From positions 2,575 to 56,763 of the forward strand of contig JAPHEE010000009.1 in the NCBI GenBank assembly GCA_029259545.1: a DNA stretch of 54,189 bases, read 5' to 3'. Made by a program: the position numbers and the translations under genes. The DNA comes from Candidatus Alkanophaga volatiphilum (lineage in GTDB: Archaea; Halobacteriota; Syntropharchaeia; Alkanophagales; B39-G2). The notes below the pieces were generated by a model. It was not told where the DNA came from and did no database searches. It was given only the letters and a program-made list of their open reading frames with translations. This document shows, one piece after another, positions 2,165-49,279 of this stretch (the stretch's first letter is position 1; each line of letters begins with the position of its first letter).

Positions 2165-3232
2165 TCATATAGCTCCGGCTCTTTCTAACTCTTTTATGCG
2201 TTCCTCGTCGTAAAGCAGTGAAGATAATACCTCTTTCGTGTGCTCGCCGAGCTTTGGAACCTTCCCCACATCAGGACGCAAACCTGCGAATTTTAGTGGG
2301 ATCCCTTGCGCTCTCACACCCCTTTGCGGGCTGGAAGCCTCTAGGGGAGGAAAGCCCCCGAAACATTTTTATTCCTTCTAACTTTTATCGATGATGCCCA
2401 ACGGCATGTCCGTTGGGCGGATGGGTCCCTGACCGGCCGAGCTGATGCGTCTCCGCAAGCCGCCCGTCCCGTGTCGGAACCTCGCCCCGGCGGGAGGCAG
2501 GTCAGCTTCCCTAACCTTGGGTAGCGGCGACGTGCGGGCGCATTTGAAGACGTCAGCGACCGTGTTTATGGAAGCTGCGGGCACGCCGTGCCGCAGAGCG
2601 TCTCCACGACTTCGTCTCGCGTTCGCGCGCCCGCGTCCACTCCTCGATGATGGGTTTCAAGAGGCTCTCAAAGTTGCGATATCGATCTTCAAGCGTCTGG
2701 ACCTTGGATGATTTACTAAGTCCTCCCCCTATCGCTCGGCAAAAACGCTCCCAGATGGTCTGAGATGCCGCTGTTATGATCACTAAGCCGTCTTTCGACT
2801 CAAAGGCGTATGGTGCGATCAAAGGAACTCCAATGCCGCTAGGTCCCGGAACTTCGCCCGTCCACTCATAGATTGCAATTTCTCTGTACATGAGGTAGAC
2901 CATGCTGTCGTACATCGCGACGGCGACGTGCTGCCCCTCGCCTGTGATATTGCGGAAGCGGGGCGCCGCGAGTATCGCAGACGCCATGAGCGTCGCCGGA
3001 AATATATCGCCGATGCTGGGTCCAACCTTCACGGGCAGCCCGCCCCTTGGGACCCGTGATGCGGGGAGCACGTCCTTATGCCCGAAACCCGTGATCGTCG
3101 CGTATATGATTCTCGGGTTCACCTGCCTCAGCATTAATGACCTCAGCACCAAGATTTACGAGGAGCATCGTGCAAAACGGCCCTGCGAGGAACCCTGTAG
3201 GGTCTAATACTCTTAACCTTCAAGTGTTTCAT
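2165..3232 (-). pseudogene. CaiB/BaiF family III CoA-transferase, decayed and interrupted by a mini-element
   Basis: Fragments RVLDPTGFLAGPFCTMLLVNLGAEVI, NPRIIYATITGFG, TGEGQHV and PKLGEHTKEVL lie in different frames; internal deletions are present. Confidence 0.85.
2318..2505 (+). mobile_element. non-autonomous IS200/IS605-type mini-element (family A, copy 1) with omegaRNA-like RNA
   Basis: Inserted after CTCAC and ends GGTCAG, with no target duplication. Removal restores YPRLGKVRAQGIPLKF of the CoA-transferase. Homologous to 20760-20951. Confidence 0.85.
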
Positions 3233-3264: not shown

Positions 3265-3339
3265 TAGCGGGGGGTGGATTCGAACCACCGATCTCCGGGT
3301 TATGAGCCCGGCGGGATTTCCTGACTACCCCACCCCGCT
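3265..3339 (-). tRNA. tRNA-iMet(CAT)
   Basis: Cloverleaf with A1-U72 pair and GGG-CTCATAA-CCC anticodon arm. Confidence 0.95.
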
Positions 3340-3390
3340 GTTTATACTTATGGAAAAGTTCATATAAAACCTTTACGTCATTCTCTGTGA

Positions 3391-3464
3391 GGGCCGGTAG
3401 CTCAGCCAGGAAGAGCGGCAGGCTCTTAACCTGTTGGTCGGGGGTTCAAATCCCTCCCGGCCCG
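3391..3464 (+). tRNA. tRNA-Lys(CTT)
   Basis: GGGCCGG/CCGGCCC acceptor stem, anticodon loop CT-CTT-AA, GGTTCAAATCC T-arm. Confidence 0.95.
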
Positions 3465-3596
3465 CTTTTCCGTCGCAACTTCTTGATAAAAGCTACATAG
3501 TGCCGTAGTAATCGTAAAGCAGTTTTGAGTAAAAACATATAAACAACTTCTGCCAATCCCTTTCGACCCTTCCTCGGTAGGGCAGGAGTTGGGAAA

Positions 3597-9472: not shown

Positions 9473-9592
9473 ATAGCACCGTTAAGGAGTTTCAGCGAGC
9501 GCCCCCGAGCTACGCAGTTCTGACATGAGCACATAATATAGTATATGCTGCTGAAATAATCGAGTCATCTTGAAGGGCTTTCTTGGTGCCCT

Positions 9593-9798
9593 GCGCCCTC
9601 CGCCCTCGCTTAGCAAGGGGTTCCCGGGGAGGTTGGGAAGTGCGGTTTAAACGAACCGCTCCCCGCCGGGCGAGTCACCGCAGCCCGCCGCAGGACATAC
9701 CCACGTCCCAAACATTCAGAGTTAAATTAATACCTCTACCAGCCCCCCACCTTCCTAATTCATCCCCGCCTCAGGACGAGCATTCTTAGCGACCGAAG
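9593..9798 (-). mobile_element. non-autonomous IS200/IS605-type mini-element (family B, copy 1; right end degenerate)
   Basis: Reverse complement aligns with 38843-39057; preceded by TTTAC. Confidence 0.8.
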
Positions 9799-9859
9799 GT
9801 AAAAATTTATCGGTACCGCAAAAATATTAAAGGAACAAAGCTTAATTTCCTAATTAAAC

Positions 9860-16186: not shown

Positions 16187-16218
16187 CTCTTTAATATTGG
16201 CTCTTCTTTATTAACTTG

Positions 16219-17337
16219 ATGCGCGCCGGACTCGCAAGTCGCATAAAAGCTATAGAGATTTCAGGAATACGAAGGGCGTTCGAGGCTGCCAGCGGCGAAT
16301 TCATAAACTTGGGGCTTGGTGAGCCGGACTTCGACACGCCTCAACACATAAAAGAGGCGGCGATCGCTGCCATAAAAGATGGCTTCACCAGCTACACTTT
16401 TGGGAAGGGTATAGAGGAGCTGAGGGAGGCGATAAGCGAGAAGTTGCGCGAGGAAAACGGCATCGACGTGACGAAGGATGAGATAATAGTCACTTCCGGC
16501 GCAAGCGAGGCGCTGCACATAGCGATCCACACGCTCGTCGAGCGCGGCGATGAGGTTCTAATTCCAGACCCCGGCTTCGTCTCTTACGCAAACCTCGTAA
16601 AACTCGCCGAAGGAGCGCCGGTGAGCGTGCCGCTGCGCAAAGAGGACATGACGATGGACGTCAATGCTGCAAGCGAGCTTATTTCGGAGCGAACGAAAGC
16701 CATTATTCTAAACTCACCCGCAAACCCCACCGGCGCTGTGTTAAGCAAAGAGGACGTGAGAGCATTTGCGGAGCTCGCTGAAGACCACAACCTGCTCATC
16801 ATTTCGGACGAAGTTTACGAGAAGATAATTTACGAGGGCGAACACGCCAGCCCTGCGAGCTTCTACGAGAACGTCGTGACCGTAAATGCTGTCTCTAAAA
16901 CGTATGCGATGACGGGCTGGCGTCTTGGTTATTTAGCGGCGCCTCGCAGCCTCGTGGAGGAAATGCTAAAGATCCATCAGTATATTCAGGCGTGCGCCTC
17001 TTCGATTTCACAAAAAGCAGCGCTCGCTGCACTCACCGGCCCGCAGGACTGCGTCGCCGCGATGGTTCGGGAATTCAGAAAGCGGCGGGATTTCGTCGTC
17101 GAAGCGTTGGAAAGGCTTGGGTTGGAGTTTGCAAAGCCGAAAGGGGCGTTCTACGTCTTTCCAGAGGTGGAGGACGAAGATGACTTCGTGGAAAGAATGA
17201 GACGAAGGGGCGTCATCGTGACCCCAGGCTCGGCATTTGGAAAATACGGGAAGAACCACGTCAGGATATCCTATGCTGCAAGCCTTGAAGACTTGAAAGA
17301 GGCGTTTGCGCGGATGGAAGACATTATTAATAGGTAG
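16219..17337 (+). CDS. PLP-dependent aminotransferase class I/II (aspartate aminotransferase-like)
   Basis: GEPDF, NSPANPTG, SDEVY and SKTYAMTGWRLG motifs. Confidence 0.95.
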   Translation: MRAGLASRIKAIEISGIRRAFEAASGEFINLGLGEPDFDTPQHIKEAAIAAIKDGFTSYTFGKGIEELREAISEKLREENGIDVTKDEIIVTSGASEALHIAIHTLVERGDEVLIPDPGFVSYANLVKLAEGAPVSVPLRKEDMTMDVNAASELISERTKAIILNSPANPTGAVLSKEDVRAFAELAEDHNLLIISDEVYEKIIYEGEHASPASFYENVVTVNAVSKTYAMTGWRLGYLAAPRSLVEEMLKIHQYIQACASSISQKAALAALTGPQDCVAAMVREFRKRRDFVVEALERLGLEFAKPKGAFYVFPEVEDEDDFVERMRRRGVIVTPGSAFGKYGKNHVRISYAASLEDLKEAFARMEDIINR

Positions 17338-17466: not shown

Positions 17467-17734
17467 AGCTGGGATAGGCGAGCCTCTCCCGACTGGAGGC
17501 GGAGCTTCTTTAAGCCTCTCCGCTCCGCCTTATAGCCCCGCTCCGGAGCCTCACGACGTTCGGGCTGCTCATCTCAGCCCCTGACCGGAGCTGAGAATTG
17601 AAGCGAGCTATACGGTGTGGGCAGGCGTCGTGACGCCGGAGGGGAGCGTAGCTTCGTGCCGCACGCTTTCCAACCTCCCTCTAACTCCCAATGCCTCCGG
17701 TGGAAGCCCTGCCTCCAGTTGGGGAAGAGGTCAC
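17467..17734 (+). mobile_element. non-autonomous IS200/IS605-type mini-element (related to family B)
   Basis: Follows TTCAT and ends gaagccc...GAGGTCAC. Removal restores the palindrome gcaagcgc-ttgttcatgagcat-gcgcttgc. Confidence 0.75.
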
Positions 17735-17960
17735 GAGCATGCGCTTGCGCGCTAACACTCGCGACATCTCAATTTTTCCTCTAACCCCTATCTTTTTCCA
17801 TCAATTCCGGTCAAAGTAGACGTTTAGCTTTCAAAACGCAGGAGATGACATGAACCCAGACATGCTCCGTCCCTTTCCCACCCTTATGCACCAAATACGT
17901 TATCACTTGTCCACTCTGGTAATGGCAGTGATTTTAAGTTACGGATCCAAAAAGAAATCG

Positions 17961-18374
17961 ATGCCAAAACGCCTTGTTATTAAGGACATAGAGAAGTGCG
18001 TGGGCTGTGGCGTGTGCATGTACGCATGCGCGAGGCGCAGCGCTAAGGACCCCGAAATAGGGATAGACCGCTCCGGCATACTGACGACCAGCTTGAGCGG
18101 CTTCGAGCGGGGCGCCACCGTCATCTTCTGCAGAGCTTGTGAGGAGCCGCCGTGCGTTCCGGTTTGTCCGACCGGCGCCCTGACGCCGAGAGCCGGCGGG
18201 GGCGTCTCCTACAAAGAGGACCTCTGCATCGCTTGCGGCAACTGCATAAAAGCGTGTAATATCGGCGCAATCTTCGAACGAAGCGACGGGAAGCCGGCGG
18301 TCTGCGTCCATTGTGGGTATTGCGCGAAGTTCTGCCCGCACGGCGTCCTCGCCTTCGAGGAGGTGCCGGCATGA
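17961..18374 (+). CDS. 4Fe-4S dicluster protein (AOR small subunit)
   Basis: Four Cys clusters (CVGCGVC, CRACEEPPC, CIACGNC, CVHCGYC); ATGA overlap with the AOR gene. Confidence 0.9.
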   Translation: MPKRLVIKDIEKCVGCGVCMYACARRSAKDPEIGIDRSGILTTSLSGFERGATVIFCRACEEPPCVPVCPTGALTPRAGGGVSYKEDLCIACGNCIKACNIGAIFERSDGKPAVCVHCGYCAKFCPHGVLAFEEVPA

Positions 18375-20977: not shown

Positions 20978-21030
20978 CTTCCATCTCACCGCCGTCACGA
21001 CGTGCCGCAGTGCTCCACCTCTGCTCAGAA

Positions 21031-21103
21031 CGCCCGGGTCGGGATTTGAACCCGAGTCGGAGCCTCGACAGGGCTCCATGATAGACCCCTACACCACCCG
21101 GGC
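21031..21103 (-). tRNA. tRNA-Asp(GTC)
   Basis: GCCCGGG acceptor stem, anticodon loop CT-GTC-GA. Confidence 0.95.
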
Positions 21104-21299
21104 ATCGTTTTGAGATTGATGAGGGGTTAATAAATACTTTTGACTCCATGCTTCTTAAACCCCTCCTGAGGGCATCATTTCCCGCCGCCTTTTTCTTTTG
21201 GCACCGTTGTTAAAGCATACAATAAAGCATATAATTCTGCACATGTGATCATGACGAACACTTTTTTGCCTACGCAACCAACTAAAATGGGGAGGTAAG

Positions 21300-38652: not shown

Positions 38653-38842
38653 AGCAAAAGGCGTAGGGCGTACGGCATGCTCGTTTCGACCCGATCAGCA
38701 CAGCACGGCACGGACGCCTCTCCTCACTCTCCTCACATCGAACGAGTCCGAGCGGATCGGTTCGGTTACGGTTACGGCTACGGGCAACTCCTCCTAGGGT
38801 TCTTACTGTCCTCGTCGTCGGGTTGGGAGCTCGGACCTTTAC

Positions 38843-39057
38843 CTCCAGTCGCTAAGAAGGCTCGTCCTGAGGGCGGGATGATTAGGGGGTTGGAGGCAGT
38901 TAATTTTTATCCGAAGATGATGTGAGTTCGGAACGAGGCCGTGGGTACATCCTGCGGTCAGGGGCTGCTGTGACCCAGCCCGACGGGAGCGGTCCGTCCT
39001 GCACACTCCCCAACCTCCCCCGGTGGACGCCCCTTGCTAAGCGAGGGCGGAGGTCAC
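38843..39057 (+). mobile_element. non-autonomous IS200/IS605-type mini-element (family B, copy 2)
   Basis: Follows TTTAC and ends ccccttgctaagcgagggcggaGGTCAC; homologous to 9593-9798. Confidence 0.85.
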
Positions 39058-40192: not shown

Positions 40193-40463
40193 GTCAGCTA
40201 CTCCCGTCTGAAGACGGGAGCTTGCAGGTGGTCTCATGCGGGCAATCATCGACCCTGCGACGTCCCGGCTGACGGCGCCCTCGGGCCGGGAGCCCGCCCC
40301 TAACCCGGTCGGTCGAAGCCCTCACAGCCCTACAGCCGTTCCTCCGAGAAACACCTCGGAGTCCTTAAGCTCTGGCTACAAAGATTCGAAACTTCACCGT
40401 TTAAAAACCTAACGGAGGTGAAAAGGCGGCACCCTCGTTAGGGGTTTCCTGCCGCCAAAACTT
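40193..40463 (-). mobile_element. non-autonomous IS200/IS605-type mini-element (family C)
   Basis: Right-end hairpin gctcccgtc-ttca-gacgggag-tagcTGAC, left end aagttttggcggcaggaaacccc after GTCAT, internal TTTTTAAA. Confidence 0.8.
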
Positions 40464-49065: not shown

Positions 49066-49279
49066 GTCAGCTTCTCCCGTCTTTAGACGGAAGATTGCTC
49101 TCGCTTAGTGGGACGCCGTCCCGCTTCATCGAGCCGATCAGGGTGGCTGACCACACCCCTCACGGGCTGGAATACTGGCATAAGCCGCTCCAGCCCATCC
49201 GAATTAAAATTGTAGTTAAAGATATAAATAACTTCCACCAATCATGGTTAAAACCATAGGCTTCCTTGGCGGCAGAGGT
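49066..49279 (-). mobile_element. non-autonomous IS200/IS605-type mini-element (family C-like right end)
   Basis: Right end cttccgtc-taaa-gacgggag-aagcTGAC, left end after TTCAC, internal TATTTATA. Confidence 0.8.

Follow-up and report, generated by a model that had tools for sequence, protein, structure and literature searches.

Probable gene-less derivatives of IS1341-type elements with an HgcC-class omega-RNA scaffold in Candidatus Alkanophaga volatiphilum

The omega RNA of the transposon ISDra2 (Deinococcus radiodurans) has a scaffold of 116 nucleotides (nt) that extends to the right-end boundary of the element, and flanking DNA serves as its guide (PMC10097598). A short pseudoknot joins its last scaffold bases to the stem-1 loop: within the loop closed by -116 to -111 and -91 to -86, bases -103 to -105 are the partners of -5 to -3. 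The end is immediately preceded by a terminal hairpin capped by a tetraloop. Here, we describe a similar build in family A, a repeated element of the archaeon Candidatus Alkanophaga volatiphilum. Two copies of it lie in the stretch of 54,189 nt that was analyzed (G000:C9:2575-56763, hereafter the window), which is part of an assembly of 1.85 Mb in 89 contigs.

Family A also resembles the Rfam family HgcC (RF00062; high-GC RNAs of Methanocaldococcus jannaschii), the consensus of which has CUGaCc in the loop of the first stem, a CCcuGUuGG hairpin, a terminal CccCGccc/gggCGggG stem and AGGAGGUCAG as its 3' tail. HgcC was connected in a 2015 paper with RNAs from the 3' ends of tnpB genes and with a palindrome-associated transposable element (PATE) that is transcribed; this and another paper on the family describe its function as unknown (PMC4615843). 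In Halobacterium salinarum, IS1341-type tnpB genes carry non-coding RNAs, the sotRNAs, at their 3' ends, and the PATE-derived VNG_R0052 of this species is a transcribed fusion of a left and a right end, linked to HgcC through its right-end tetraloop (Gomes-Filho et al. 2015, PMC4615843). The PATEs known from Haloquadratum walsbyi (PMC3119063) and Geobacillus stearothermophilus (10.1101/2023.03.14.532601) derive from IS605-type elements but hold no genes; they have palindromes near their termini, lack inverted terminal repeats and insert beside a short target oligonucleotide. According to the preprint on the latter species, omega RNAs are frequently encoded by PATEs and depend on TnpB supplied in trans. 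Gene-less IS200/IS605 derivatives with TnpB guide RNAs are thus a known kind of element.

We consider family A likely to be such a PATE, that is, a gene-less deletion derivative of an IS1341-type, tnpB-only IS200/IS605 element, with a left end, a TATA-like promoter and a complete HgcC-class omega-RNA scaffold. PATEs with omega RNAs are known; what appears to be new is the organization of the parent clade, in which tnpB is inverted and the guide gene diverges from it. We lean slightly towards the view that an archaeal TnpB clade has uncoupled its guide-RNA gene from its nuclease gene, with tnpB inverted, a divergent HgcC-class omega-RNA unit, a shared and often palindromic TATA box, a cassette of ~150 nt, and PATE orphans.

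Boundaries and identity of the family A element

A blastn search of the element against the assembly yielded 18 full copies (the two in the window and 16 sisters), none of which holds a gene, and two fragments, namely a left end alone on contig C44, running into a stretch of N, and a right part alone on C5. The full copies are 188-207 nt long, TCAC excluded. In a MAFFT alignment of the 18 copies, the left boundary is marked by TCAC in 17 and by ACAC in one; the right boundary, where the similarity of the copies stops, is GGTCAG in 15, GGTCAC in two and GGTCGG in one, and the flanks beyond it are variable. Because the copy at C1:71526 starts immediately after the GGTCAC end of a B-type element, we regard TCAC as a target motif outside the element. 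Contigs assembled from public runs (two metatranscriptome and two DNA runs, over positions 1900-2900) have loose ends at 2314-2325 and 2503-2505, which are the two boundaries of copy 1. An empty-site joint was not found in these contigs over 1900-2900, and in the same-genus genome G001 synteny stops beside the element, leaving nothing readable.

The two ends, ACACCCC... and ...GGTCAG, are not inverted repeats of each other; no inverted repeat between the two ends of one copy was reported, and no duplicated flank (target-site duplication) was seen in the alignment of the 18 copies. Therefore, we rejected a miniature inverted-repeat transposable element in the strict sense and favor a PATE, the features of which are present in family A: a non-coding length, near-terminal palindromes, no terminal inverted repeats and a fixed target oligonucleotide at one end. 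Because the scaffold reaches exactly to the right-end boundary of the transposon, flanking DNA could act as guide, which in copy 1 would begin at 2506. Near the two window copies we noted tRNA genes: a tRNA-Asp gene (21030-21104, minus strand) ends 75 nt from the left end of copy 2, and a tRNA-Met/tRNA-Lys pair (3265-3465) lies ~760 nt from copy 1.

The HgcC model matched 13 of the 16 family A loci scanned at E<=10. The sister copy C28:7497-7607 reached 53.5 bits, above the HgcC gathering score of 50 bits, compared with 44 bits for the C5 fragment and 60.9 bits for a relative in genome G004. Genome-wide, 21 matches were obtained at E<=0.001, some of them directly 3' of tnpB genes. Modules of the B type, which are built alike, start within the final codons of a tnpB gene and run to GGTCAC; nine genes of this kind were noted, and several of the overlapping modules belong to the genome-wide HgcC matches. 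Because of the HgcC matches and the B-type modules of the same build at tnpB 3' ends, we take the modules to be TnpB omega-RNA scaffolds, and this evidence supports assigning the 3' part of family A to an omega-RNA-type scaffold of the HgcC class. The family A scaffold measures ~85 nt from stem 1 and ~110 nt with the hairpin 5' of it, somewhat less than in ISDra2.

Covariation of the 5' hairpin and the terminal pseudoknot

The scaffold at 2396-2505 would fold into a 5' hairpin, stem 1 with a CUGACC loop, two small hairpins, a G+C-rich hairpin and GGUCAG, which at the end of the RNA would pair with the stem-1 loop and form a pseudoknot. The hairpin CCG-TGT-CGG at 2469-2477 corresponds to CCcuGUuGG of the HgcC model, with which stem 1 and its loop, the terminal hairpin and the 3' tail align as well (Table 1). 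In the alignment, the 5' hairpins of copy 1 (GCCCAACGG-CATGT-CCGTTGGGC) and copy 2 (TCGGTCAGC-TAAAT-GCTGACTGA) occupy the same position of the element, each with a 9-bp stem and a 5-nt loop. A preliminary description of the window had reported these two hairpins together with a pair of complementary hexamers specific to each family, and we found all of them exactly at the coordinates it gave, 2396-2418 and 20867-20845 for the hairpins.

Pairing was compared with 500 shuffles and with slid registers in an alignment (A3) of 32 modules, comprising 11 gene-less family A, 11 TnpB-linked A-type and 10 B-type modules, which was made by MAFFT and not fitted to structure. MAFFT set stem 1 of the A and B types one column apart; because of this misalignment, stem 1 and the internal and terminal hairpins were left out, so that the covariation counts refer to the 5' hairpin and the pseudoknot. 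For the hairpin, 89.5% of 237 cells were paired, compared with 66.9% after shuffling; none of the 500 shuffles was as high, and slid registers gave at most 56.4%. Two-sided changes occurred at eight of the nine pairs, with a covariation score of 0.435 versus 0.169. In a separate, structure-fitted extraction of hairpin arms, 43 parsed modules had 31 distinct arm pairs, with a mean of 8.4 of nine pairs between cognate arms and 5.0 between swapped arms. Background windows outside the repeat modules formed at most six of nine pairs, excepting module windows one base off register.

In the pseudoknot, an internal hexamer on the 3' side of the stem-1 loop pairs with the six bases that close the element (CTGACC/GGTCAG in family A, GTGACC/GGTCAC in family B and GTCAGC/GCTGAC in family C). 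On A3, 99.0% of 192 cells were paired (shuffled 90.7%, 0/500 as high, slid registers at most 42.6%), with two-sided changes at two of the six pairs. The outer pair is CG in 20 rows, GC in 10 and UA in one; the inner pair is CG in 29, AU in one and UG in one. Each has one unpaired row, and these two unpaired cells are an alignment slip in locus L068 and a true mismatch in the copy on C58. This variation amounts to about three independent compensatory events. In the corresponding positions, other TnpB lineages of this genome, read from sequence, have GUGAAC/GUUCAC (on C8, C4, C17 and C30) or UGGCAC/GUGUCA (C6:10233), and GUCAGC, the internal hexamer of family C, faces GUUGAC at C7:35281. Exceptions are the TnpB-linked copy on C31, with one G-A mismatch between its hexamers, and the module type at C20:10030 and C29:6509, which has no matching hexamer at these places. 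A match of 6-7 bp within one module was not significant in a shuffle test: among rows with a trusted stem-1 parse, shuffled loops equaled it in 31 to 486 of 1000 trials. The case for the pseudoknot therefore rests on covariation.

Taken over the 32 modules, covariation supports both the hairpin and the pseudoknot as parts of an RNA fold. The preliminary description had also held that TnpB omega RNAs close with a pseudoknot beside the guide, and the ISDra2 omega RNA has this same geometry, its last bases pairing with the stem-1 loop (PMC10097598). Unlike ISDra2, family A has six Watson-Crick pairs, and these use the very last bases.

Table 1. Positions of family A, B and C modules in the window, parts of family A copy 1, and copies of one B-type subfamily elsewhere in the assembly
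Feature	Position	Strand	Remarks
Family A copy 1	TCAC 2314-2317, element 2318-2505	+	read from sequence
Copy 1: TCAC target/transposon-adjacent motif	2314-2317	+	just outside the element
Copy 1: left end with imperfect hairpin GCGGGCT...AGCCCCC (2326-2359)	2318-2359	+	near-invariant across 18 copies
Copy 1: A-rich stretch and TATA-like box CCGAAACATTTTTATT	2358-2373	+	putative archaeal promoter of the RNA
Copy 1: 5' hairpin H0, 9 bp, 5-nt loop	2396-2418	+	adjoins the Rfam HgcC model on its 5' side
Copy 1: stem 1 GGTC/GGCC, loop CCTGACC	2424-2438	+	loop contains pseudoknot 5' half CTGACC 2429-2434
Copy 1: two short internal hairpins	2447-2477	+	GCG/CGC 2447-2456; CCG-TGT-CGG 2469-2477
Copy 1: terminal G+C-rich hairpin (right-end hairpin, last scaffold stem)	2480-2497	+	CccCGccc/gggCGggG stem of HgcC
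Copy 1: GGTCAG, pseudoknot 3' half	2500-2505	+	last element bases; similarity of copies ends here
Family A copy 2	TCAC 20955-20952, element 20951-20760	-	hairpin 20867-20845; end GGTCAG 20765-20760
Family B gene-less copy	38838-39057	+	hairpin 38937-38959; GTGACC 38970-38975; end GGTCAC 39052-39057
Family C copy	40193-40330	-	internal GTCAGC 40273-40268; terminal GCTGAC 40198-40193
Family C copy	49066-49200	-	internal GTCAGC 49151-49146 in GGGTG/CACCC loop; terminal GCTGAC 49071-49066
B-type CGTGCT subfamily copies	C1:55476, C1:78452, C22:23675, C24:11505, C41:4302, C67:491, C83:1482, C19:28629, C42:3646		

Full-length relatives and the origin of the hairpin variants

Among 40 relatives, blastn found family A DNA as weak matches in G004 and G038 only. 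The G004 locus encodes a TnpB of 376 amino acids (L040:325-1455; Pfam PF07282, E 3.8e-25), with an HgcC-type module upstream on the opposite strand. We searched this protein against the order (68 genomes) and against the genome collection and obtained 11 distinct loci that encode a TnpB 55-100% identical to it. Read by eye, an omega-RNA module lies upstream of tnpB, 45-60 nt from its start and on the opposite strand, in all 11 loci. Of these upstream modules, nhmmer detected 10, and Rfam HgcC likewise 10 at E<=0.001, always on the strand opposite tnpB and with at least 50 bits in five (50.3-60.9 bits). The two ends of family A match the two ends of these tnpB-bearing relatives; in reverse complement, the left end extends over the final tnpB codons, with ...GTGA as its closing bases in 10 of the 11. 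The flanks of the 11 loci are unrelated at both ends. Thus read, the full element consists of TCAC, the left end, tnpB on the bottom strand, a TATA-like box, GATGAT, the hairpin, the scaffold and GGTCAG, in this order. The TnpB clade occurs in assemblies labeled Methanophagales, Archaeoglobaceae, 'Thermococci' and Methanosarcinales. The G004 element adjoins a D5-type primase-helicase gene (DUF5906, D5_N; L040:1695-3029, minus strand), and because of this neighbor it may be part of a provirus or another integrated mobile element.

In copy 1 and in all 11 TnpB-linked relatives, a TATA-like octamer precedes the hairpin by 22-28 nt; in many cases it is the palindrome TTTATAAA. The usual archaeal distance between TATA box and start would place the start site at or just before the hairpin. 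From this we infer that the box is the promoter of the omega RNA and that the parents of family A have a separate omega-RNA transcription unit, upstream of and divergent from the inverted tnpB. In the full-length parents, with tnpB on the opposite strand, the omega RNA would be transcribed divergently from its own promoter and bound by TnpB, and the complex would cut the emptied donor site (TCAC plus flank), which would restore the element. An omega RNA is encoded in the same element as tnpB in all 11 relatives, not in the gene-less copies; it overlaps or follows the tnpB 3' end on the same strand in the B-type modules, not in the family A clade.

In this respect the clade differs from the described systems. 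IscB omega RNAs are encoded on the same strand as iscB. As in IscB, the guide RNA is encoded upstream of the nuclease (PMC10691335), but the family A clade has its guide-RNA gene on the other strand, and its nuclease is TnpB. A survey describes the omega RNA as downstream of TnpB (PMC10691335). Unlike ISDra2, the family A-clade RNA gene is upstream and divergent and does not overlap the tnpB 3' end (PMC10097598), and whereas sotRNAs overlap tnpB in sense (PMC4615843), the parents of family A would encode their RNA divergently. The PATEs of H. walsbyi and G. stearothermophilus differ from family A, which has a promoter-like box from a parent with a separate RNA unit and no cognate tnpB in the assembly. 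In the literature searched, supplements not covered, we found no account of a TnpB omega RNA that is encoded upstream of tnpB and divergent from it. If true, pipelines that seek omega RNAs only downstream of tnpB would miss the uncoupled cassette, and with a conserved upstream, divergent guide gene some TnpBs may be wrongly taken as guide-less. The clade would offer a natural example of a guide-RNA gene apart from the nuclease reading frame, a step towards independent CRISPR guide loci, and the scaffold of family A is compact and directly testable.

The relatives also bear on the origin of the hairpin variants. The variant of copy 1 (GCCCAACGG/CCGTTGGG) is present in the TnpB-linked locus L064, with wobble forms in L068 and L070; the variant of copy 2 (TCGGTCAGC/GCTGACCGA) is present in the TnpB-linked loci L067 and L069 and nearly identical in L073, and L062 has CTGAGG/CCTCAG. 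The structure-preserving divergence thus appears to have arisen among autonomous elements and then to have been inherited by the gene-less copies, so that differences between copies that preserve the structure would reflect descent from distinct autonomous lineages. Both variants pre-exist in other archaea, within elements linked to TnpB, and their divergence therefore does not testify to selection on the copies in this genome. More generally, compensatory differences between repeat copies can come from different source elements and need not show selection on the copies.

State of the copies and competing explanations

The preliminary description had concluded that the fold is under selection and that the copies are not inert debris. 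The RNA fold stands, as an omega-RNA scaffold with covariation; selection on these copies is not supported, since their variants are inherited and some copies are broken. The hairpin retains at least eight contiguous pairs in 10 of the 18 family A copies and seven pairs in two. Of the other six, two are hybrids, two (both on C15) are truncated, one has a 1-nt deletion and one has lost the hairpin by deletion. In the hybrids, C13:5506-5692 and C3:82594-82789, the arms come from different variants and no longer pair, without compensation, which suggests recombination or gene conversion between subfamilies.

The alternative that survives best, though we consider it unlikely, is that the gene-less copies are under selection here for a working RNA, either as trans guides for resident TnpBs or as another small RNA. 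It can draw on the perfect 6-mer partner that 15 of the 18 copies keep for their own last six bases, and on the copy C26:481-671, in which the end has changed to GGTCGG and the stem-1 loop, carrying a short duplication (CTGACCGACC), supplies a perfect CCGACC. The promoter-like box, too, is kept in the family A copies (alignment of 18), the genome has 39 matches to the TnpB zinc-ribbon domain (34 above the cut-off), and overexpression of a PATE-derived RNA improved the growth of H. salinarum (PMC4615843). Set against this are the inheritance of the hairpin variants from autonomous lineages and the eight copies with fewer than eight contiguous pairs, among them the uncompensated hybrids, the truncations and a deletion. 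The pseudoknot complementarity is lost in three of the 18 copies. Further, a B-type subfamily with the stem-1 loop CGTGCT has no pseudoknot 5' half, although its 5' and terminal hairpins and GGTCAC persist, and still reached at least nine copies, nine being present among 78 parsed modules (Table 1). Among resident TnpBs, the nearest shares just 28-37% identity with the clade protein, and the RNA contigs gave no expression signal beyond copy number. We therefore think it most likely that the family A copies are orphan, slowly decaying guide-RNA cassettes without a cognate tnpB in this genome.

Several observations weigh against our main reading of family A. No family A-clade TnpB was found in the assembly (no matches at E<=1e-40), which is 88% complete and contains runs of N; the best tblastn match to the clade TnpB had 28% identity over 380 amino acids, and a partial one 37% over 189. 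N runs directly follow transposon ends at C44:7208-7262 and C6:60150-60279, and because such repeat-rich stretches are unresolved in the assembly, the claim that the cognate tnpB is absent is a limited one. In the contigs over 1900-2900, in which strand, start and end of a transcript are unreadable, the depth ratio of element to flank was ~10-25 fold in the RNA runs versus 4-28 fold in the DNA runs; this likeness fits copy number and gives no sign of specific expression. Both window copies are below the HgcC cut-off: a scan of the whole window gave no match to either of them at the gathering score or at E<=0.01, and they are absent from the 21 genome-wide matches at E<=0.001. Fold energy gave the sense strand no advantage (z of -0.68, -3.13 and -0.02, versus -3.48, -2.27 and +1.70 for antisense); it separated neither sense from antisense nor real from shuffled sequence. 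Finally, the 5' hairpin lies directly 5' of stem 1, outside the HgcC model, and in ISDra2 cleavage does not require the RNA that precedes stem 1 (PMC10097598). The hairpin may be a stabilizing or processing element at the 5' end of the RNA.

A second alternative, which we regard as very improbable, places the signal in DNA: the hairpin would be a recognition hairpin of TnpA, and the hexamers would reflect pairing of cleavage sites with guides during single-strand transposition. IS200/IS605 TnpA indeed reads subterminal hairpins and pairs cleavage sites with internal DNA guides (Meers preprint, 10.1101/2023.03.14.532601). The terminal TCAG resembles the target TCAC, seven Y1 transposase matches occur in the genome, and the family A hairpin variants, being almost wholly Watson-Crick paired, fold on either strand. 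However, the B-type hairpins contain up to four G-U pairs and fold on the sense strand only, collapsing on the other. The internal hexamer is ~70 nt from the end and within a stem loop, not at the foot of the right-end hairpin; the 5' hairpin is more than 85 nt inside the element; and the module matches the model of an RNA family and has the geometry of the ISDra2 RNA pseudoknot (PMC10097598).

That the upstream module of the relatives is a separate neighboring remnant, and family A a chance fusion, is hardly credible: nested or abutting insertions are common here (B then A at C1:71526, a B-B tandem on C18), but order, strand and spacing are constant in 11 of 11 loci at 55-100% protein identity, where the flanks on either side are unrelated; in the 18 gene-less copies precisely these two ends are joined in a single unit; and the conserved TCAC is found at the left end only.

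A search by nhmmer with 35 seed modules detected 138 omega-RNA-like regions in the 1.85 Mb, roughly one per 13 kb, and the modules belong to at least six lineages with different terminal hexamers. A terminal hairpin the same as that of family C follows a tnpB gene at C31:7521-7730. Two further B-type modules were seen in the window. A gene-less copy at 9552-9803 (minus strand) has a decayed 3' end, with GGAGGGCGC in place of GGAGGTCAC, and has lost the 3' half of the pseudoknot. In a module without a left end at 17599-17734 (plus strand), the 5' hairpin is degenerate, the stem-1 loop motif reads CGTGACG (17629-17635) and GGTCAC (17729-17734) forms the end; this module is placed between the open reading frames 16216-17337 and 17850-18374.

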